Below, piece by piece: positions 4,339 through 50,862 of a DNA stretch of 64,000 nt (its first letter is position 1; each line of letters begins with the position of its first letter). The translations under genes and the position numbers were made by a program. The DNA is from an uncultured virus (IMG/VR IMGVR_UViG_3300049846_002026) (Duplodnaviria; Heunggongvirae; Uroviricota; Caudoviricetes), in IMG/VR virus record IMGVR_UViG_3300049846_002026. One strand, written 5' to 3'. The notes below the pieces were generated by a model. That model searched no databases, was not told where the DNA came from, and saw only the letters and a list, made by a program, of their open reading frames with translations.

Positions 4339-5358
4339 GTGGAAAAAGCCGAAATCGCCGCGTACGTCCGTACCATCCTGACGGAGAAGGCGCGCGACAT
4401 CTACCTGCGCAACCACGAGTTCGATTACTACGGCTGGGTGGCCAAGGCTGTGCCACCTGACCAACAGCACCTGCCGCATGTGGACCGGGGCCATTGGCTC
4501 GGTGCCACGCAGGAAGCTGAAGCACGGCAGTTGGTGGCCGATGCCGAAGACGCCATGGAGAAGGCCCGGGCCGAGCTGGCCGGCCTCAAGCCAGGCGATA
4601 CCACGTACGACGCAGCCAAAGCACTCGTGCAGTGGGCTGCGGACCAGGTCAAGGCCGCGCAGGACCACCTGGGCATCACCCTGGACACGATCCAGAAGGC
4701 CATCGAACGTCGTCGGCAGTTCCGTCTTGACAAGCTGGTGAGTAAGCTGTTCCTTCGCTACTATCACCGCGCCCGTCACATGGAATGGGAGCTGTTCGAC
4801 ACTCGCTTGCCCGCGCAACTCCGGAACTATCTGATGCTGCAGTTCCGTGGGCAGAAGCTGAGCCCCACCGCCATGGTGTTCCTGTGGCTGGTGGTCGAAG
4901 AGAACTTGGATCATGGTGGTGTGTTCCAAGTCAAGGGTCTCGGAGCAACGGACTACCTGGCCCAGCACGCCTTGGCCACATCGTCCCTGGATACGGATGC
5001 TCCGGAAGATCGGCCCACCCGGATGGAAGAAGACTACATCCGCGAACTCCAGCGCCCGGATGCGGTTCCGACCCACGAGAACCTCGATCCGCGCAGCACG
5101 GAGAATGATCACACGTACGATGGTCTCCCGTCCTTGGGTGCCTTGGACGGTAAGCTCGTCGACAAGCACACGTGTCCCACCTGCGGTACGCAGGTTCGCG
5201 ATCGTATCGTCAGCCTTCGTGGTCGGTACTACGGGATCGAGGGCTGCGACAACTACGCCACGAAGTGCCGGTACGAACCGATCACATCGGGCTTCACCAC
5301 CAGGAAGGCCGCCGTTGAGCACCTCGAAATACTCCATGCCCTCGAACGTGCCGGCTGA
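4339..5358 (+). CDS. hypothetical protein, possible C-terminal Zn ribbon
   Basis: 339-aa ORF in gene string; CPTC...C...C. Confidence 0.7.
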   Translation: MEKAEIAAYVRTILTEKARDIYLRNHEFDYYGWVAKAVPPDQQHLPHVDRGHWLGATQEAEARQLVADAEDAMEKARAELAGLKPGDTTYDAAKALVQWAADQVKAAQDHLGITLDTIQKAIERRRQFRLDKLVSKLFLRYYHRARHMEWELFDTRLPAQLRNYLMLQFRGQKLSPTAMVFLWLVVEENLDHGGVFQVKGLGATDYLAQHALATSSLDTDAPEDRPTRMEEDYIRELQRPDAVPTHENLDPRSTENDHTYDGLPSLGALDGKLVDKHTCPTCGTQVRDRIVSLRGRYYGIEGCDNYATKCRYEPITSGFTTRKAAVEHLEILHALERAG

Positions 5359-5650
5359 AGTGGCAGGGCTGCTTGCCGAGATGGAAACGGAGCTGAGCAT
5401 GCTTCGTGGCGTCATCCAAGGCATCGGCATGGAGCTGATGGACATGACGGGGAAGGATCAACGGCTCTTCCACCGGGGCCACCTGGTCTACTACGATATC
5501 GTTCGACAGAGCTACGTGGTGGACCACACCATCCCCATGACTTTCCAGGAGACTTGCGCATTCCTGGAGCTGTCGCCTGACAGTCGGGTTGCAACGCTGA
5601 TCACTCAGCTTCGGCCCATCGCGCCGCCAGCTCTCCAGCTGGTCAAATAG
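5336..5650 (+). CDS. hypothetical protein
   Basis: ORF overlapping upstream stop; start uncertain. Confidence 0.55.
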   Translation: MPSNVPAEVAGLLAEMETELSMLRGVIQGIGMELMDMTGKDQRLFHRGHLVYYDIVRQSYVVDHTIPMTFQETCAFLELSPDSRVATLITQLRPIAPPALQLVK

Positions 5651-5654
5651 TCCC

Positions 5655-5875
5655 TCGTTACGGCAGTCACCGGGCCCAACGGAAGTGCGGGTACTGACTT
5701 GCAGGCATGAACATGCTACCTGTGACGTAACACAGGTGCTCTTCGGAGCTGGACATCAGTATGCTGCGAGGTCAATCGGAATCTGACCTAGGCCAATGTG
5801 ATCCGGCGGCACATCCAGTGTCGTGAGCACCACTAGCAGGCTTTTGCGGTTGGGCCTGACCAAAACCAACCGCCC
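5655..5875 (+). ncRNA. unclassified structured RNA candidate
   Basis: nested helices GCATG/CATGC, ACCTGTG/CACAGGT, GCTC-TTCG-GAGC, GTACTGA/TCAGTAT, AGGTCA/TGACCT, GGCCCAAC/GTTGGGCC. Confidence 0.55.
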
Positions 5876-5898
5876 ACTTGTTCGATGAGTTCGTCAGA

Positions 5899-6021
5899 GG
5901 GCTCTTTACCGCAATCCTCTTCCAAACCGATGGATCGTGGGTTCGAATCCCACCGGGCGTTAGGGTAGTTTGAAACGCACGTAGCCAAGTGGTACGGCAA
6001 TCGACTAGACAAGCGGAGCCC
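5899..6021 (+). ncRNA. Y RNA-like (YrlA-type) RNA with circularly permuted tRNA domain (motif copy 1)
   Basis: terminal helix GGGCTCT/GGAGCCC, TACCGCAA, T-arm GTGGG-TTCGAAT-CCCAC preceding closed acceptor and D-arm TAGCCAAGTGGTACGGC. Confidence 0.75.
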
Positions 6022-6047
6022 GGACGTTCTCATCTCTTTCACTCACC

Positions 6048-6551
6048 ATGACCAGACCAACACCGTTCATCGTAAGCGACACGCACTTCGGTCATAAGCT
6101 GTTGGCTGACAACGTGTTACGCCCATGGTCGGACGTCGACAGCATGAATGAAGCGCTGATCGAACGCTGGAACGCAGTGGTACCACCGACGGCTCGTGTG
6201 TACCACCTCGGCGATGTGGTGATAAACCGCCGCTTCCTCGCACTGCTGCCGCGACTGCATGGCCGTAAGGTGCTCATCAAGGGCAACCACGACATCTTCA
6301 AGCTGTCGGATTACACGGCGCACTTCGACGACATCCGTGCCTACCACATCCTGGGCAACGCGTGGTTGAGCCACGTTCCCTTGCATCCGGCCCACTGTCG
6401 GATGCCGTTCAATGTTCACGGGCATCTGCACGACAAGCTCGTGCTGTTGCCGGACGGGTCACCTGACCCGCGGTACATCAACGTGTGCGTGGAGCACACC
6501 AACTATCGTCCCCTGAGTTGGGACGAGCTGGAGGTTCGGTTACGCGTATGA
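6048..6551 (+). CDS. calcineurin-like metallophosphoesterase
   Basis: SDTHFGH, LGD, KGNHD, HGHLH motifs. Confidence 0.9.
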   Translation: MTRPTPFIVSDTHFGHKLLADNVLRPWSDVDSMNEALIERWNAVVPPTARVYHLGDVVINRRFLALLPRLHGRKVLIKGNHDIFKLSDYTAHFDDIRAYHILGNAWLSHVPLHPAHCRMPFNVHGHLHDKLVLLPDGSPDPRYINVCVEHTNYRPLSWDELEVRLRV

Positions 6552-6997
6552 ACATCTATCTGCTGTCCCACGAGCTCGTCGGTCCGCAGCTCTGGCTGCC
6601 CAACGTGTTCAGCCTGCTCTTCGCCTGCGGCATCGCGTTCGTCTGGTACGAATACCTGTGGGCCGAGGAGTCGGACTACGAAGCGAAGAAGCTGTACAGC
6701 TTCGTCGTCACGGTCACGCTGATCGGCCTGGCCGTCGGGTTCCTGCATCCCCAGGCCACACTGATCTTCGGTGGCCTCGGGCTGACCATCGCGGCCGGCG
6801 CTGTCGGCTTCAACCTGCGCAAGTACACCCAGCGCGTCAAGGGCCGACTGCGGAGCGTGAAGCAGGAGATCACCAGGATCCAGAATGAGCAACGACTCCT
6901 CGCGCAGCGAACCAGCGGGAACATCATCGTGCCGGACGAGAGCCAGTTCAACTGGCGCTGGCGTCTGAAGTACCTGCTCACCACCCCGCTGGACTGA
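6548..6997 (+). CDS. hypothetical membrane protein
   Basis: ATGA overlap; three hydrophobic segments. Confidence 0.65.
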   Translation: MNIYLLSHELVGPQLWLPNVFSLLFACGIAFVWYEYLWAEESDYEAKKLYSFVVTVTLIGLAVGFLHPQATLIFGGLGLTIAAGAVGFNLRKYTQRVKGRLRSVKQEITRIQNEQRLLAQRTSGNIIVPDESQFNWRWRLKYLLTTPLD

Positions 6998-7005
6998 TCA
7001 ACGCA

Positions 7006-7060
7006 GGACTGCATACAGCAACCCTACTTGACTCTGAAAATCAAACCAACTGCAGTCCGT
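7006..7060 (+). ncRNA. ACAGCAA-motif RNA, copy 2
   Basis: GGACTGCA-TACAGCAA...TGCAGTCC-GT. Confidence 0.7.
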
Positions 7061-7072
7061 CCCGCTGTTCTA

Positions 7073-7137
7073 AGGTTACCGTCAGCAACAACGCCAAAGG
7101 GATGTACGGTGATGGGTCCGCAACCCTGGTAGCCTGT
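7073..7137 (+). ncRNA. ACAGCAA-motif RNA, copy 3
   Basis: AGGTTACC-GTCAGCAA...GGTAGCCT-GT. Confidence 0.65.
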
Positions 7138-7171
7138 TCCCAGCAGTTTCAATCCTTCTCTAGGAGTTTAC

Positions 7172-8587
7172 GTGCATCCGTTCGCGAAGGCAATGACCGT
7201 CCAGGCAGCGGTCACGGAGAACGGCATGGTCACCCATGCCGGCTCCGGACATCCGGTACTCGACTTCTTCTTCAAGATGGGTGGAGGTCGTGGCCAGCAG
7301 GACATGGTGTTGCAGGCGTTCCAGCAGGCGTACGCGTACGACAAGCTGCTCGCACTCAAGGCGCTGTTCCATCTGCGCGATGTGCGGGAAGGCATGGGCG
7401 AGCGCCAGCTGTTCCGCACCTGTTTCGCCTGGCTCGCGCAGTACGATCCGGCGATCGCAGCCCACAACCTCGACAACGTCCCGGAGTTCGGTCGGTACGA
7501 TGATCTCATGGCCACCACCGGCACGCCGATCGAAGCCCAGGCGCTGACCAAGTGGACGCAGGCCATCATCAAGGACGACGCCCTGGCGGCCAAGTGGGCG
7601 CCGCGCGAGGGTAAGGAGCACCACGAGTGGGCGCTCAAGCTGCGTCAGGCGCTTCGGATCAACTGGAAGAGCTACCGGCAGCTGCTCGTGTCGGCCAGCC
7701 AGACCGTCGAACAGATCATGTGCGCGGGGAACTGGACCGCCGTGAACTACAACCACGTGCCGAGCCAGGCTGCACTGCGTTACCGCAAGGCGTTCTTCAA
7801 GCGCGACAAGGACCGCTACCTGGAGTACATCAACTCCTTGGCGAGCGGCAAGACCAAGATCAACGCAGCGGCCGTGCACCCGCACGAGATCGCGGCACGC
7901 ATCGCCCTGTACAACCTCAACATCGGCGAAGCGGAGCTCTTGGAGGCGCAGTGGAAGGCGCTGCCCGACCTGGTCAAGAGCGGCGAGAGCTTCCTGCCAA
8001 TCGTGGATGTCAGCGGCTCGATGGCTGGCCAGCCGATGGAAGTGGCGATCGCCCTGGGCATCTACCTCAGCGAGCGTAATCGTGGGGAGTTCAAGAACCA
8101 GATCATCACGTTCAGCGAGCAGCCGCGCTTCTTCCAGCTGGCGGGCGGGCTGCGTGACAAGGTGCTCGCGCTGCGCAGCGCCCCCTGGGGGTACAACACG
8201 AACGTCCAGGCGGTGTTCGACCTGATCCTTCGGCAGGCCCAGATCCATAGCCTGAAGCCCGAAGACATGCCGAACAACCTCATCATCCTGAGCGACATGC
8301 AGTTCGACCAGGCCTGTCCGGACTACAGCCTGACGGCGATGGAGCTCATCCGCCAGAAGTACGCAGCGGTGGGCTATCAGGTTCCCACGATCGTGTTCTG
8401 GAACCTGCGGACCAGCCTGGGCGTGCCAGCCCAGTCCGACGAGTGCAACACACAGCTCGTGAGCGGATTCTCGCCCAACGCCATGAAGGCCGTCCTGGCC
8501 AAGCAGGAGCTGCCGGTGGTCACGCCCATCGACAGCATGCTGGCTGTCCTGCTCAGTCCGCGGTACGAGTCCGTGAGGGTCGAATGA
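7172..8587 (+). CDS. DUF2828 family protein (TROVE/Ro60-like helical domain + vWA)
   Basis: TENG, LRDVREGMGER, FGRYDDL, AAKWAPRE; vWA MIDAS DVSGSM, SDMQFD, FWNL, VSGFSP; AGGAG RBS. Confidence 0.85.
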   Translation: MHPFAKAMTVQAAVTENGMVTHAGSGHPVLDFFFKMGGGRGQQDMVLQAFQQAYAYDKLLALKALFHLRDVREGMGERQLFRTCFAWLAQYDPAIAAHNLDNVPEFGRYDDLMATTGTPIEAQALTKWTQAIIKDDALAAKWAPREGKEHHEWALKLRQALRINWKSYRQLLVSASQTVEQIMCAGNWTAVNYNHVPSQAALRYRKAFFKRDKDRYLEYINSLASGKTKINAAAVHPHEIAARIALYNLNIGEAELLEAQWKALPDLVKSGESFLPIVDVSGSMAGQPMEVAIALGIYLSERNRGEFKNQIITFSEQPRFFQLAGGLRDKVLALRSAPWGYNTNVQAVFDLILRQAQIHSLKPEDMPNNLIILSDMQFDQACPDYSLTAMELIRQKYAAVGYQVPTIVFWNLRTSLGVPAQSDECNTQLVSGFSPNAMKAVLAKQELPVVTPIDSMLAVLLSPRYESVRVE

Positions 8588-9841: not shown

Positions 9842-10219
9842 ATGTCACGCGCCCTGTACATCATCCGGGGCCTGCCGGGAAGCGGGAAGACCACCCTGGC
9901 CAAGGCCCTCGCACCTCACGCGAACGCAGCGAACGACGACTACTTCTACGGGCCGAACGGATACAAGTACGACTCGACGAGGCATTTCGACGCTCGTTCC
10001 CAATGCGCACGTCGGGTCGCTAACTTCATGCGGGACGGGCACCCGAACGTCGCGGTGCACAACACCTTCATCAAGCACAAGGCTTACGCAGAATACCTGG
10101 AGCTGGCCAAGCAGTTCGGCTACAAGGTGATCATCGTGAGCATGCAGGCCCAGCTGGGCAGCGTACACAACGTACCTCCGGACGTCATGAGGAGCATGGC
10201 TGCTGACTGGGAGCCCTAG
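9842..10219 (+). CDS. P-loop kinase (AAA_33 / polynucleotide kinase-like)
   Basis: RGLPGSGKTT Walker A, DDYF, NTF, HNVP. Confidence 0.85.
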   Translation: MSRALYIIRGLPGSGKTTLAKALAPHANAANDDYFYGPNGYKYDSTRHFDARSQCARRVANFMRDGHPNVAVHNTFIKHKAYAEYLELAKQFGYKVIIVSMQAQLGSVHNVPPDVMRSMAADWEP

Positions 10220-22762: not shown

Positions 22763-23174
22763 CCCCATGGATTTCGCTGCATTGATCGAAAAGCACTTGG
22801 CAGGAACAGCTGATCTGCCGATCGTGCTGCTGTGCAATACGACCCCTGGCCAGTGTGTGTTTTCCAAACGTGTGATTCACACCCTGTCTGAACTGTCTGC
22901 TGCGTCACTTGGCTCACAGTGTTTGAACATCTACGTGGATGAGTTCAAACAGTCTTGGGGCATCTGGATCAGTTGGGAGGAGGATGAGCAACGGTTCACG
23001 GTGCGTCATGGTCCTCGGAGCTTGCAAACACACGCAGTGAACATGGGCTTGGGTTGGAAAACCATGCCTTATGAAGTTCCTGAGATGTTTCAGCAAGATG
23101 TCATCAAGCTGAGTGAAGAGTTTCGGCTGCATCATCCTGACCTGTACGAACAGATCATGCGGGAGAACCCATGA
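22752..23174 (+). CDS. hypothetical protein
   Basis: coupled ORF. Confidence 0.55.
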   Translation: MARNPMDFAALIEKHLAGTADLPIVLLCNTTPGQCVFSKRVIHTLSELSAASLGSQCLNIYVDEFKQSWGIWISWEEDEQRFTVRHGPRSLQTHAVNMGLGWKTMPYEVPEMFQQDVIKLSEEFRLHHPDLYEQIMRENP

Positions 23175-23434: not shown

Positions 23435-23782
23435 GGGGCCGATCTGGTTTCGATTGGTTAGTAGAGGGATTGCGGCGCGTAAGAGTGCTCCTAGCTTAAC
23501 GGAGCAAAACGTCAACTGCGAAGAACATCTTCGGCGGTCAGCCTGCCCTGATGGCTGCGTAAGCAGCCTCGGGTAGACCCAGGTCTGCAGAGTACCTGGC
23601 AAACCCAAACTCATGCAACTATACGTACCGGTCGGTAAAACGGCGTTCCTGGACGTACACCAGGTGGTGGAGGGTAATCGCAAGGTTGCCCCTAGCAGGA
23701 CGTTGGCCAACGTACATGGCACACACGCGTAGATGCAATCAGGAAGCTCGCCAAGACGAGGGTTCGATCCCCTCCGGCTCCA
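23435..23782 (+). ncRNA. ssrA: tmRNA; tag peptide AKNIFGGQPALMAA* at 23518-23562
   Basis: 5' GGGGCCGATCTGGTTTCGA; 3' GACGAGGGTTCGATCCCCTCCGGCTCCA; G3:U pair; tag ending AA. Confidence 0.95.
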
Positions 23783-23855
23783 CTCCAAGTTCAGTATCCG
23801 CCTGCACCCGGCGCTGCGAACGCAGCGCCGGGTTCGGCTTTTGAACTCTATCACA

Positions 23856-38574: not shown

Positions 38575-38650
38575 GGGGTGGTAGCTCAGCGTTAGAGTCC
38601 GGTCATAGACGATCGGGGGTCGGAGGGTTCGAGTCCTTCCCCACCCACCA
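38575..38650 (+). tRNA. non-canonical tRNA-like gene, anticodon undetermined
   Basis: TAGCTC D-arm, GGTTCGAGTCC T-arm, encoded CCA; anticodon arm CCGGTC-ATAGAC-GATCGG. Confidence 0.65.
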
Positions 38651-40342: not shown

Positions 40343-40600
40343 ATGATGCGGGCTAAGTTCGTTGTGGTGAAGGTAGCGAAGTGTGTCGGCTACAACGGCG
40401 AGCCGATCGGCTCTGTTGAGCTGACGCTCCAAGCGGTTAGTGATGCGCATAACGGCCCGAACGGCGAGCGCGAGGACAGTACCTTCGCACTCTACACACC
40501 GTTCGCCAATCTCAACATGACGATCACGAACCCGGTGTTCTTCGACACGTTCAAGCCTGGAATGAAGTTGTACGCAGACTTCACCGAGGCAGCAAAGTAA
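40343..40600 (+). CDS. conserved phage protein
   Basis: MRAKF...F..YTP..NL.MTITNP...F.PG..YADFT pattern. Confidence 0.7.
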   Translation: MMRAKFVVVKVAKCVGYNGEPIGSVELTLQAVSDAHNGPNGEREDSTFALYTPFANLNMTITNPVFFDTFKPGMKLYADFTEAAK

Positions 40601-40719
40601 GACTTCGCACAGCAATCCAACTTCGACTACGGATCGAGAGATACAGGTTCAAATCCTGTCGACGAAGCTCAGCTTCGTTGTGGTGCAACTGGGTAGCACG
40701 CTATCAAAACGAAGTCTGT
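40600..40719 (+). ncRNA. Y RNA-like (YrlA-type) RNA with circularly permuted tRNA domain (motif copy 5)
   Basis: AGACTTCG-CACAGCAA; ACG anticodon-like hairpin; T-arm; acceptor closed by TCA loop; D-arm; CGAAGTCT-GT. Confidence 0.8.
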
Positions 40720-40799: not shown

Positions 40800-40854
40800 A
40801 GATTGCGCACAGCAAAAACCCTGACTTGCACTCAGAGCAAAAACCGCAGTCTGT
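40800..40854 (+). ncRNA. ACAGCAA-motif RNA, copy 6
   Basis: AGATTGCG-CACAGCAA...CTGA-CTTGCAC-TCAG...CGCAGTCT-GT. Confidence 0.7.
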
Positions 40855-44933: not shown

Positions 44934-45959
44934 ATGAGCAAGAAGGAGAAGGAGCCGGGCACACCGAAGTCCAAGGGCGCCGCACTAGAAGCGGCGATTG
45001 CCGACATCGAGAAGGCTTTCGGCAAGGGCACGGTGATGCGGAGCAACACGGTCATTGAAGTTCCCGTCATCCCGACCGGTGCGCTCAATCTTGATGTTGC
45101 ACTAGGCGCTGGTGGCATTCCGAAGGGCCGTATCACTGAGGTGTTCGGCCCTGAGTCATCTGGGAAGACCACCATCTGCTTGCACCTGATCGCGAACGTG
45201 CAGAAGGAAGGCGGTGTGGCGGCGATCATTGATGCCGAGCATGCCCTCGACCTGGGCTACGCCGAGAAGCTGGGCGTCAACATCGACCAGCTGCTGGTTA
45301 GCCAGCCGGAATGCGGTGAAGAGGCGCTCAGCGTGGCAGAGAAGCTGATTCAGAGCGGTGCGGTGGACATTGTGGTCGTCGACTCGGTCGCGGCTTTGGT
45401 TCCCCGGGCTGAGCTGGAAGGCGAGATGGGCGCGGCGCACATGGGTCTGCAGGCTCGCATGATGGGTCAGGCTCTGCGCAAGCTGACCGGCATGGTCAGT
45501 CGCACCAACTGCGCGTTGGTGTTTGTGAACCAGCTGCGCGAAAAGGTCGGCGTGATCTTCGGTAGCCCCGAAGTGACTCCTGGGGGCAAGGCGCTCAAGT
45601 TCTACGCCTCGGTTCGTCTCGACGTCCGGGGTAAGAAGCTCAAGGAAGATGACGAGGCGGTGGGCGTCAAGGTCACCGTCAAGGTGGTGAAGAACAAGGT
45701 CGGTCCGCCGTTCAAGCAGGCGGAGTTCGACATGCTCTACGGCACTGGCATCGACACCGCGGGCATTCTGCTGAACGCCGCGGTAGACATGGACATCATC
45801 ACCAAGTCCGGCTCGTGGTATCAGCACAACGGCAAGAACATCGGCCAGGGGTCTGACAACGCCAAGGCCTATCTGCTGGAGAACCCGCAGCTGATGGAAG
45901 ACATCGAGAACCAGTACTGGGCCAATCACTACGAGGCCCCGCTGGCGGAGATCGAATGA
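44934..45959 (+). CDS. recA: RecA recombinase
   Basis: [53 protein letters not shown]. Confidence 0.98.
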
Positions 45960-47716: not shown

Positions 47717-47944
47717 ATGACTCCGATCTTGCCTGACAACTTCTGGAAGAAGCGCGAACGGTGCTGGGCCTGCAAGCGGGTAGTCAGCTTGGCGGCGTGG
47801 CGGCGTGGCGAAGTGGAAGAGCTGGACATCAGTACCGCTGCGCACGACGAGCCCTATGTGGTGGTAGTGCACAGGGTAGACGGGTGCGAAAGCAAGACCC
47901 TCAAACAGATCAGGGCAGAACTTGCGGCCCAGGAGACGGTGTGA
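47717..47944 (+). CDS. hypothetical protein
   Basis: ATG right after tRNA; GTGA coupling to next gene. Confidence 0.55.
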   Translation: MTPILPDNFWKKRERCWACKRVVSLAAWRRGEVEELDISTAAHDEPYVVVVHRVDGCESKTLKQIRAELAAQETV

Positions 47945-48975
47945 CATTCAGCTTTAGCAAGCTTCTGCATCGGGTCACCGCGGCTCACCCAGCGGACACG
48001 CTGGACCTCGAACTATCAAGTGGTCTGGCAAAGGCAGGCGCCAGCGTCCACTTCGCGCCACTGGACGCCATGGTGGGCGTACGGTCTGGTGACGACAAGA
48101 GCACGATCGTGCTGACGGCGCACCGCGATCAGATCGGCTTCCGCATTTCGCAGTACGACGAGAACGGCTTTGCCTTGTTCGTGCCGGTTGGTGGTTGGGA
48201 TCCGCAGATTCTCGTAGGTCAGCCGGTGGTGGTTGGACGGCACTATCAGCCTGGTGTGATCGGGCGCAAGGCCATCCACCTGCTCAAGGACGGCGACGAG
48301 AAGCAGGTCGTGAAGCTGGAGAACATGTGGATCGACTTCGGCTTCAAGTCGGCGGAAGAGGGCAAGCAGAAGCTGCCGATCGGGAGCTTCGGTGTGGTCG
48401 ACCGCGGACCTAGCACCCTGGCCAACGATCGGTTCAGCTCGCGCGCCCTGGACGACCTGGCCGGCTGTGTGGTCGCGATCGAAGCCATGGGACGGTGCAC
48501 GGTAACGCCAAACGCACCCACCCTGGTCACGGTGCTGACCAAGCACGAAGAGACCATTTGGCTGGGTGTGAGCGGCAACTACGTGGCGGAGGTCGTGCGG
48601 CCGATGTGCATCATCGCGCTCGACGTCACGTTCGCTGAGGACCCGGACACCGTCGCGAAGGACAACAACGGCGTAAAGCTGGGTGGCGGTCCCGTGATCT
48701 ACCACGGTGGTATGTTGGACGAGCAGCTGACCCAGCGGATCGTCGCTCTGGCGCAAGAGCGGAAGATCCCATACCAGGAAGCCGTGATCGGCGGACACAG
48801 CAGCACCGACGCGGACGGCATGGCCCTGGGCGGCACTGGACAGCGGACCCTGCTCATCAGCATTCCCCTCCGCTACATGCACTCTCCGGTCGAGCTGGTG
48901 GACTTGCAGGACTTGGAGCACACGATCCAACTGCTCCAGGCAATCCACGAAACAGCCGCAAAGCGGGACCTGTAG
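47941..48975 (+). CDS. M42 family metallo-aminopeptidase
   Basis: AHRDQIGF, VGGWD, MWIDFG, RALDDLAG, HEE, IALDVT, KLGGGP, PLRYMHSPVE. Confidence 0.9.
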   Translation: MTFSFSKLLHRVTAAHPADTLDLELSSGLAKAGASVHFAPLDAMVGVRSGDDKSTIVLTAHRDQIGFRISQYDENGFALFVPVGGWDPQILVGQPVVVGRHYQPGVIGRKAIHLLKDGDEKQVVKLENMWIDFGFKSAEEGKQKLPIGSFGVVDRGPSTLANDRFSSRALDDLAGCVVAIEAMGRCTVTPNAPTLVTVLTKHEETIWLGVSGNYVAEVVRPMCIIALDVTFAEDPDTVAKDNNGVKLGGGPVIYHGGMLDEQLTQRIVALAQERKIPYQEAVIGGHSSTDADGMALGGTGQRTLLISIPLRYMHSPVELVDLQDLEHTIQLLQAIHETAAKRDL

Positions 48976-50325: not shown

Positions 50326-50862
50326 GTGGCGCACGTGATGTTGGATCTGGAGACACTGGGGCGTAGCGCAGGCTGTGTGGTGCTGAGCATCGGCGCGGTG
50401 CGCTTCGACATGGAGAAGGGCCTGCAGGAAGAGTTCTATCGGGTGATCGATCTGGACACCAGCCTCGCGGCAGGCCTGAAGGTCGAGCCAGAGACCGTAG
50501 CGTGGTGGTTCCAGCAGGAGCCCGAGGCACGGAAGGTGCTGCTGGAGGCCATGAACGGCACAGCGTGTGGGCTTCGGACAGCTCTTCAGGACCTGCAGGA
50601 GTTTCTCAAGCCTGACGATCTGATCTGGGGCAACGGTGCCACCTTCGACAACGCGATTGTGGTGGCGGCGGCGGAAGCAGTCAACCTGCCGCGGCCGTGG
50701 AGCTACCGGAACGATCGGTGCTTCCGGACCCTGCGGTCGCTGTACCCCGATGTGAACTGGCCGCAGACGACAGGTATTCTGCACCATGCGCTGGACGACG
50801 CCAAGACGCAGGCCCAACTGGCCGTGAAGATCATGCTGGAACATCGGTATAACGTGGTGTAG
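50326..50862 (+). CDS. DEDDh 3'-5' exonuclease/exoribonuclease
   Basis: MLDLETLG, SIGAV, WGNGATFD, HHALDDA. Confidence 0.9.
   Translation: MAHVMLDLETLGRSAGCVVLSIGAVRFDMEKGLQEEFYRVIDLDTSLAAGLKVEPETVAWWFQQEPEARKVLLEAMNGTACGLRTALQDLQEFLKPDDLIWGNGATFDNAIVVAAAEAVNLPRPWSYRNDRCFRTLRSLYPDVNWPQTTGILHHALDDAKTQAQLAVKIMLEHRYNVV

Follow-up and report, generated by a model that had tools for sequence, protein, structure and literature searches.

What kind of gene lies at positions 5899-6021 of a stretch of DNA from an uncultured tailed virus (Caudoviricetes; IMG/VR record IMGVR_UViG_3300049846_002026)? The window, by which we mean the entire 64,000 nucleotides that we analysed, is phage-like (60% G+C) and carries 40 tRNA genes at 36.7-52.6 kb as well as a tmRNA at 23435-23783. 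A first-pass annotation, made from the letters alone, had described the element as a permuted, glycine-like tRNA mimic near a gene for a DUF2828 protein. Ro60, an autoantigen in humans, forms a conserved particle with its Y RNAs that acts in RNA quality control. We found that 5899-6021 is a real RNA within this Y RNA/Ro60 theme. It is probably a gene for a non-coding, Y RNA-like RNA. As its partner, we favour the Ro60-like ring protein (DUF2828/phrog_850) that is encoded on the same strand 1.15 kb downstream.

The RNA has the arms of a tRNA in a permuted order (Table 1), and we confirmed every segment that the first-pass annotation had named, position by position. Both ends of the RNA lie in the terminal helix, on the anticodon side; the acceptor stem ends in a closing loop, without an encoded CCA. 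The two acceptor strands, CGGGCGUU and AACGCACG, pair at 7 of 8 positions (with one G.A) across a 12-nt loop (5962-5973). Read from the sequence, the tRNA identity nucleotides are U8, A14, G15:C48, G18 and G19, U54-U55-C56, A58, and G53-C61.

Neither ARAGORN nor the Rfam tRNA model reports a tRNA in the linear order of 5899-6021. The Rfam model (RF00005) matches the T arm alone, at 15 bits, and does not find a contiguous cloverleaf with an anticodon loop. When the halves are re-joined in silico, by circularising the 123 nt and allowing an insert in the anticodon loop, ARAGORN reports a cloverleaf at its default threshold, with a 38-nt "intron" and the anticodon CCA. We also wrote a descriptor (a T arm, an acceptor hairpin of at least 7 bp, 2 nt, and a D arm with GG). 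Outside of true tRNAs, it matches the 64 kb at 5937-5998 and at 40643-40699 and nowhere else, while 40 mononucleotide shuffles of the window gave a mean of 0.1 matches and a maximum of 1. (The minimum-free-energy fold of 5899-6021 is unremarkable, with z = -0.75, and does not recover the tRNA-like arms.) The arms in the sequence, the cloverleaf on the circle, and the rarity of descriptor matches in shuffles all support the proposal of a permuted tRNA mimic.

Could such an arrangement be due to chance, or be the decayed remains of two adjacent tRNA genes? Tandem tRNAs do yield false matches to YrlA, the Rfam family discussed below: among the matches of RF02553 in IMG/VR tRNA arrays, which we rejected as tandem-tRNA artefacts, all that we inspected were dimers. 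But in 5899-6021, the halves are complementary in the acceptor stem (7 of 8 positions) and are enclosed by two further helices, shuffled windows average just 0.1 descriptor matches, and the terminal module is common to 139 distinct relatives. We consider chance or decay to be highly improbable.

Permuted tRNA genes exist in some algae, so we also considered that 5899-6021 might be a genuine permuted tRNA gene, whose two halves, either joined or working in trans, would yield a tRNA that decodes for glycine or tryptophan. The cloverleaf on the circularised 123 nt, with its 38-nt "intron", fits this idea. But joining the ends would place a 7-bp helix and CCGCAAU at the site of the anticodon loop, instead of a 7-nt loop, and the "anticodon" is arbitrary (UCC in the first-pass annotation, CCA according to ARAGORN). 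Also, the acceptor stem is loop-closed with no encoded CCA, the window already has tRNA-Gly (UCC and GCC) and tRNA-Trp, and the unpermuted relatives described below likewise lack an anticodon loop. We give this explanation almost no weight. The label "Gly-like" does not hold: CUUCCAA (5919-5925) lacks the closing stem of an anticodon loop, ARAGORN on the circle chooses CCA, and this stretch diverges in a related contig (see below). Nor could we trace the element to one particular tRNA, as had been suggested. No tRNA in the window stands out, and the best local scores (18/34 and 12/30) come mostly from the T arm.

What the first-pass annotation overlooked is that the architecture is identical to that of a known design, the YrlA RNAs, which are bound by Ro60/Rsr in cells and modified by TruB and DusA. 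(Our statements about published YrlA and Thermus phage RNAs draw on parts of Chen et al. 2014, PMC4201824, and Hu et al. 2025, PMC12135203.) In a search of 701 nt, positions 5929-6005 aligned to positions 23-88 of the Rfam YrlA model (RF02553) with 24.3 bits and E = 0.009. This is below the gathering score of 69 bits, and the whole window has no YrlA match at gathering thresholds; the part of the model for the Ro60-binding stem is not matched by 5899-6021. Like YrlA as described by Chen et al., the element has a terminal helix that holds a motif, a T arm, a closed acceptor stem, a D arm, and a short closing stem. It shares the tRNA tertiary nucleotides, including the covarying pair 15:48. A gene for a ring-plus-vWA protein lies within 4 kb on the same strand, and smaller siblings without a tRNA body accompany it, as YrlB does for YrlA (PMC4201824). 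Elements directly downstream of DUF2828 genes in the Mycobacterium phages Jubie and Silverleaf score higher against the YrlA model (39.3 and 39.8 bits). The differences from YrlA are that 5899-6021 has C(A/C)GCAAU in place of GNCGAAN0-1G, which is the proposed Ro60 contact near the 5' end of YrlA (PMC4201824), and that its neighbour is a DUF2828/phrog_850 protein, which by sequence is not a TROVE protein. We found no GNCGAA in 5880-5930, and CCGCAAU stands at 5909-5915 instead.

These differences matter for another explanation, in which 5899-6021 is a standard YrlA RNA and works with a canonical TROVE-type Ro60, encoded by the host or by the phage outside of the window, and the DUF2828 protein is a bystander. 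YrlA is the best Rfam family for the element, our view is limited to 64 kb of the phage, and Table S2 of PMC4201824 lists YrlA in phages with TROVE-type Ro60 (cluster C mycobacteriophages, Bacillus phage G, and CcrColossus). However, the score of 24.3 bits is far under 69 and comes from the tRNA-like core alone (model positions 23-88), and the Ro60 signature GNCGAA (PMC4201824), whose equivalent is CGAA in PMC12135203, is absent from 5880-5930. None of the 61 open reading frames (ORFs) of the window that we scanned matches Pfam's TROVE, and tblastn with the TROVE protein of CcrColossus gave a best E of 0.97. Furthermore, the CNGCAAU module tracks DUF2828 genes in many phages, while the TROVE-linked RNAs of CcrColossus are framed otherwise (GGGUGGCGUAG ... 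GUUCCCCC), and R1, our covariance model for the small relatives of the element (see below), finds nothing in CcrColossus or Bxz1. We think that a canonical YrlA is quite unlikely.

Caulobacter phage CcrColossus is informative as a parallel system. It too is a large, tRNA-rich phage, in which a tandem array of RNAs, each T-arm or tRNA-like, adjoins the gene for a ring-plus-vWA protein (gp139, about 470 amino acids). But gp139 matches Pfam's TROVE (1.2e-17), its BLASTP similarity to the window's protein is limited to the vWA patch DVSGSM (E = 0.074), and its RNAs are not framed by CNGCAAU. As a side observation, seven tandem units lie at about 4500-5620 on the minus strand of the locus (JX100810.1, L033), upstream of gp139. 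These units open with (G)GGUGGCG(U/C)AG and close with GUUCCCCC, and one of them is annotated as tRNA-Gln. Table S2 of PMC4201824 has three YrlA candidates upstream of gp139. Another phage system, Ro60 with Yrl1 and Yrl2 in Thermus phage phiLo (Hu et al. 2025; PDB 9KOP and 9L5Y), differs in that its RNAs were identified by CGAA and are not called tRNA-like in the parts of PMC12135203 that we drew on. A profile of the DUF2828 alignment did not find 9KOP at E values of up to 10. Finally, tmRNA and other tRNA mimics resemble the element in having a T arm and an acceptor stem but no anticodon. In tmRNA, however, the acceptor end is open and can be charged, and part of the molecule is coding; the window has its own tmRNA.

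The window contains a second tRNA-shaped copy, at 40600-40717, and three small RNAs of the same family (Table 1). So the helix-plus-motif module occurs at five places in the window; at 5899, its form is GGGCUCU-UUA-CCGCAAUCC...GGAGCCC. The first-pass annotation was right that 5899-6021 is a second copy of the 40600 kind, but it had called the two sequences unlike each other. In fact they align with 76 of 137 columns identical and a score of 10.5, while 200 shuffles gave a mean of -7.1 (standard deviation 4.6, maximum 6.5), so none of the 200 reached the real score. Both copies contain helix-NN-C(A/C)GCAAUCC-N-CUUC and GGAUCG. The pair 15:48 is A15:U48 in the 40600 copy and G15:C48 in the 5899 copy. 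The 40600 copy sits among the genes of the tRNA array, at a distance of 32 kb from the DUF2828 gene, and ARAGORN finds its cloverleaf on the circle only at a lowered threshold. Two of the small RNAs, 7006-7058 and 7073-7135, occupy the 174-nt gap before the DUF2828 gene, 114 and 37 nt upstream of it.

Similar RNAs accompany DUF2828 genes in many other phages. The module of this family consists of a helix, 1-4 nt, CAGCAA(U), and an A-rich opposite strand, and it frames small RNAs that flank DUF2828/phrog_850 genes in phages of Mycobacterium, Listeria, Staphylococcus, Bacillus, Salmonella, and Campylobacter, and in many uncultured phages. In a search for T arms that do not belong to tRNAs, arrays of elements with CAGCAAU just inside the helix adjoined the DUF2828 gene in most loci. 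We counted helix-plus-CAGCAA elements in a sample of 28 loci, comprising the first 14 kb of the window, 15 loci from reference phages, and 12 of 21 loci from IMG/VR. (The nine other IMG/VR loci were omitted as seeming duplicates or truncated copies, as judged from match statistics alone.) There were 87 elements on the strand of the gene and 11 on the other strand, versus 4.6 in shuffles, and 24 of the 28 loci have an element within about 1.1 kb of the DUF2828 gene. Among 66 metagenome loci, the corresponding counts were 129, 20, and 7, with an element within 1 kb in 37 loci; those lacking one are often short contigs or contain the most distant homologues. Across 93 loci (548,777 nt), CAGCAA carries a helix in 214 of 406 instances on the gene strand, compared with 31 of 254 on the opposite strand and 16 of 103 after shuffling; the figures for two control hexamers are 13 of 96 and 12 of 79. 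In many loci, small family elements lie just 10-110 nt from the DUF2828 gene.

We collected 139 distinct elements, with a median length of 59 nt and the consensus aAGAUnnn-CAGCAAUU ... A-rich ... AUCUU-G. In an alignment of 53 elements (A3), 86 cells at eight helix pairs have changed on both sides, versus 28.6 in shuffles (0 of 500 shuffles reach this). Because the detector that selects the rows demands a helix, this covariation shows that the sequence of the helix varies freely, not that the helix exists. A search of Rfam 15 gave no match to the small elements. From the 53-element alignment, we built R1. It scores 15.5 bits for 7006-7058 and 17.5 bits for 40800-40852, both of which are training rows; it does not report 7073-7135, which MAFFT misaligned in A3. 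In whole phage genomes, some R1 matches that were not in its training set also adjoin the gene: in Jubie this is the genome's best match (24.7 bits), and in Staphylococcus phage BE02 it is that genome's second and third best. The best R1 matches in Salmonella phage SapYZU01 and Campylobacter phage PC14 are away from the DUF2828 gene. Applied to four phages without DUF2828, R1 found nothing in T5, Bxz1, or CcrColossus (for T4, see below). One further candidate in the window, at 23079-23140 on the plus strand (GAGAUGUU-UCAGCAA ... AUCAUCCU), lies about 300 nt upstream of the tmRNA and has an R1 score of 14.1 bits (E = 0.86).

How does 5899-6021 fit in this family? As we propose to define it, the group has a terminal or distal helix of at least 7 bp, then 1-4 nt, then C-N-G-C-A-A-(U), on the same strand as a nearby DUF2828 gene, and 5899-6021 has all of these. 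The rare CCGCAA, with the spacer UUUA as at 5899, recurs in tRNA-shaped RNAs of Aeromonas phage avDM12 (L047), which has a DUF2828 gene, and in another locus (L015). (In avDM12, at 6520-6660, we also noticed what are apparently two successive T arms, CCGGUUCGAUUCCG and CUGGUUCGAAUCCAG, in one acceptor-like helix, GUUGUCGCGA/UCGCGACAAC.)

The family's RNAs differ in what the module carries. The commonest member has the helix, the motif, a small hairpin, and the A-rich return strand, and some have a lone T arm. The members with a whole tRNA body in the permuted order are both copies of the window and RNAs of four mycobacteriophages, Salmonella phage SapYZU01, Bacillus phage FADO, and Cronobacter phage S13. 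S13 also has members whose tRNA body is in the ordinary order, with an open acceptor end, as do T4-like uncultured phages. In place of the anticodon arm, these unpermuted members have a 4-bp stem, then an A-rich strand, a closed distal hairpin, and CAGCAAU. Those beside DUF2828 genes score 37-57 bits with the Rfam tRNA model over 110-121 nt. For instance, just downstream of the DUF2828 gene of S13 (NC_028773.1; L035) are a 121-nt "tRNA-Ser" (4857-4977) and a 113-nt "tRNA-OTHER" (4987-5099), both so annotated, which resemble this family's mimics without an anticodon more than they resemble tRNAs.

If the window element is read from 6015 round to 5915, its parts come in the same order as in the unpermuted members. 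Because the circular reading gives the same order, we regard the two forms as circular permutations of one design. Among 25 tRNA-shaped members (9 permuted and 16 unpermuted), A14 is present in all 25, and 15:48 is G:C or A:U in 20 (8 of the 9 permuted and 12 of the 16 unpermuted); the others have G:U (2) or another combination (3). Two permutations of one RNA amount to a natural experiment, which indicates that the three-dimensional shape matters and the position of the ends does not. For YrlA, we have not seen the opposite permutation, with an open acceptor end and a closed distal helix, described in the parts of PMC4201824 that we drew on. (We dropped a covariance model of the permuted group because MAFFT misregisters acceptor hairpins of differing length.)

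The first-pass annotation had suspected the DUF2828 locus, a suspicion that our analysis supports. The protein matches Pfam's DUF7788 and DUF2828 and, weakly, VWA_2, and it belongs to phrog_850 ("RNA-binding protein"). In its predicted model, the protein is a helical-repeat ring with an inserted vWA domain and a MIDAS motif. By tblastn, homologues are present in 711 of 50,697 phage records, and the mycobacteriophage records label theirs as "Ro-like RNA binding protein". The closest homologues in IMG/VR and metagenomes are at most 39-46% identical. In sequence searches, the protein had no match to TROVE (PF05731), and phmmer and profile searches of PDB sequences did not find Ro60.

Is the element transcribed, and does it have close relatives? 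RNA-library contigs span 5731-5963 (X12) and 5661-5918 (X13), which is a weak hint of transcription, as such libraries may contain DNA. Within 5600-7300, the coverage by X12 and X13 stops at 5963, and other pieces that match at 5920-5958 are T arms of unrelated tRNAs. The related contig of X13 is alike through 5918, diverges over the CUUCCAA stretch, and resumes at ...CGAUG-AUCGUGG. Scans of 5400-7300 for promoters and terminators found nothing. Blastn of 5850-6050 against the 50,697 phage records gave no match, and a 19-mer of the element had no exact match in IMG/VR.

Alternatively, the element might be a tRNA mimic that functions independently of the DUF2828 protein. Such an RNA might act as a sponge or decoy, binding host enzymes or toxins that recognise tRNA by its elbow or acceptor end, or it might be a tRNA-like processing signal (for RNase P) in a polycistronic transcript. 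That the second copy lies within the tRNA array, 32 kb from the protein gene, would make sense for such an RNA. But this alternative leaves unexplained why relatives without a tRNA body share the helix-plus-CNGCAAU module, and why the small relatives are so tightly spaced from DUF2828 genes (10-110 nt). We consider it unlikely.

Several observations do weigh against the Y RNA interpretation. First, 5899-6021 is separated from the DUF2828 gene by two ORFs and 1.15 kb, and the 40600 copy is 32 kb off. Second, we found no close phage relative, and hence there is no orthologous covariation for the element. Third, its own form of the motif is not enriched: in the 93 loci, CCGCAA carries a helix in 9 of 95 instances on the gene strand and 9 of 96 on the other strand. 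Membership of the 5899 element therefore rests on its architecture, its likeness to the 40600 copy, and a few matching examples. Fourth, the pairing statistics of alignment A3 are partly circular, as the element detector requires a helix. R1 is weak as well: its matches in the window have 11.6-17.5 bits (E of 0.12-3.7), and T4, which has no DUF2828 gene, has four matches at the background level of 15.6-17.6 bits. Fifth, there is no CAGCAA element within 3 kb of the gene in three DUF2828 phages (Stenotrophomonas DLP6, Vibrio D527, and Aeromonas avDM12). Sixth, the protein model is middling (pLDDT 74, TM 0.32-0.43, root-mean-square deviation of 8-10 Å), and neither sequence profiles nor Pfam link the DUF2828 protein to TROVE or Ro60.

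Given the genomic linkage, the fold of the protein model, and the precedent of Ro60/Y RNA/PNPase particles in bacteria and Thermus phage phiLo (PMC4201824, PMC12135203), we infer a Y RNA mechanism for the binding and function of 5899-6021. One end of the RNA would be a protein-binding module, made of the terminal helix and an asymmetric internal loop whose 5' strand has CCGCAAU, a variant of the CAGCAAU of the relatives. By analogy with Ro60 and Y RNA, the DUF2828 ring may grip this handle of helix plus CNGCAAU, with CNGCAAU as the putative contact. The other end is a full tRNA body, with an elbow and an acceptor stem but no anticodon loop, and the ends of the RNA lie where the anticodon arm would be. 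This tRNA-shaped cargo might dock enzymes of tRNA handling or RNA decay, or compete for them during infection. These enzymes might include PNPase, RNase P, the CCA-adding enzyme, and RNA-repair enzymes; the phage itself has 40 tRNA genes and a tmRNA.

Table 1. Features of the window discussed in the text (all on the plus strand).
Feature	Position	Strand	Details
tRNA-shaped Y RNA-like gene, permuted topology	5899-6021	+	evidence: sequence, Rfam YrlA, ARAGORN on circle, descriptor vs shuffles
Terminal helix	5899-5905 / 6015-6021	+	GGGCUCU / GGAGCCC; 7 bp, one G-U
CCGCAAU motif	5909-5915	+	on 22-nt 5' internal strand
Anticodon-stem remnant	5928-5931 / 6000-6003	+	CGAU / AUCG; 4 bp
Variable region	5932-5936	+	5 nt
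T arm	5937-5953	+	GUGGG-UUCGAAU-CCCAC
Acceptor hairpin	5954-5981	+	CGGGCGUU (5954-5961) with AACGCACG (5974-5981)
U8 A9	5982-5983	+	UA
D arm	5984-5998	+	GCCA-AGUGGUA-CGGC; then single A, then AUCG
3' internal strand	6004-6014	+	11 nt
Phosphoesterase gene, between the RNA and the DUF2828 gene	6048-6551	+	phrog_547, E 1.1e-46; Pfam Metallophos_2 E 0.0097, below cut-off
Small RNA without tRNA body	7006-7058	+	53 nt; GGACUGCA-UA-CAGCAA...UGCAGUCC; helix and motif
Small RNA	7073-7135	+	63 nt; AGGUUACC-GU-CAGCAA...GGUAGCCU; helix and motif
DUF2828/DUF7788/vWA protein, proposed partner	7172-8587	+	471 aa; Ro60-like by predicted fold
Other tRNA-shaped copy	40600-40717	+	AGACUUCG-CA-CAGCAAUCC ... T arm 40643-40659, 9-bp acceptor hairpin, D arm ... 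CGAAGUCU
Small RNA directly after tRNA-Ala	40800-40852	+	AGAUUGCG-CA-CAGCAA...CGCAGUCU

The genes around DUF2828 would fit the healing of RNA ends or RNA repair. Positions 9842-10219 of the window encode a P-loop kinase of the polynucleotide-kinase type, and the neighbours of the DUF2828 gene in Listeria phage WIL-1 include HD, RtcB-type ligase, and NADAR genes. Several phages also encode a phosphoesterase within a few kb of DUF2828: besides the one in the window, they are found in L043 (5172-5714), L032 (26-835), L036 (6354-7013), and L041 (5069-7449). Those of the window and Enterococcus phage VRE9_2 belong to phrog_547; elsewhere, they are metallophosphoesterases.

Some other features of these genomes are worth recording. 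Among the window's tRNA array are plus-strand genes for RecA (44934-45959), an M42 aminopeptidase (47761-48975), and an Rv2179c-like 3'-5' exoribonuclease (50326-50862). At 38576-38650 on the plus strand, directly after tRNA-Ile, ARAGORN reports a "tRNA-???" with a two-base anticodon (ag), which is not among the Rfam tRNA matches at the gathering score. In uncultured phages with DUF2828, we saw a permuted tmRNA of the cyanobacterial type beside the gene and wcaG RNA motifs a few kb away (together, these features are at L007, 4522-4773; L011, 10566-10668; L002, 8198-8307).

The YrlA RNAs, the Ro60 ribonucleoproteins of phages, and the Ro-likeness of the DUF2828 protein (noted in some genome records) are already known. 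To our knowledge, the bacterial Ro60 system is known only with TROVE-type proteins and with GNCGAA or CGAA RNAs. In the open-access literature (PMC and bioRxiv), we did not find a description of this RNA family, the CNGCAAU signature, the link to DUF2828, or the coexisting permutations, nor anything relevant on an RNA partner of DUF2828 proteins; the subscription literature may bear on this point. (The one paper on a phage RNA that we found to contain CAGCAAU, bioRxiv 10.1101/2023.03.07.531596, has the heptamer solely inside a listed coding sequence.)

More broadly, we lean towards the view that DUF2828/phrog_850 proteins and helix-plus-CAGCAAU RNAs form a second, virus-specific branch of Ro60 and Y RNA. 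Its RNAs would be modular, often in tandem on both sides of the gene, with one binding module and interchangeable cargoes (a hairpin, a T arm, or a tRNA body in either permutation). The particles might give tRNA-rich phages their own platform for RNA surveillance or repair, or might capture the host's tRNA-handling enzymes. If so, oddly long "tRNA" annotations in phages, such as the 121-nt and 113-nt genes of S13, would be explained. And a protein family that is annotated merely as "RNA-binding", "vWFA", or "hypothetical" would gain defined RNA partners, in a set of 711 phage records that includes Listeria, Staphylococcus, Campylobacter, Salmonella/E. coli (Felix O1 type), and T4-like phages.

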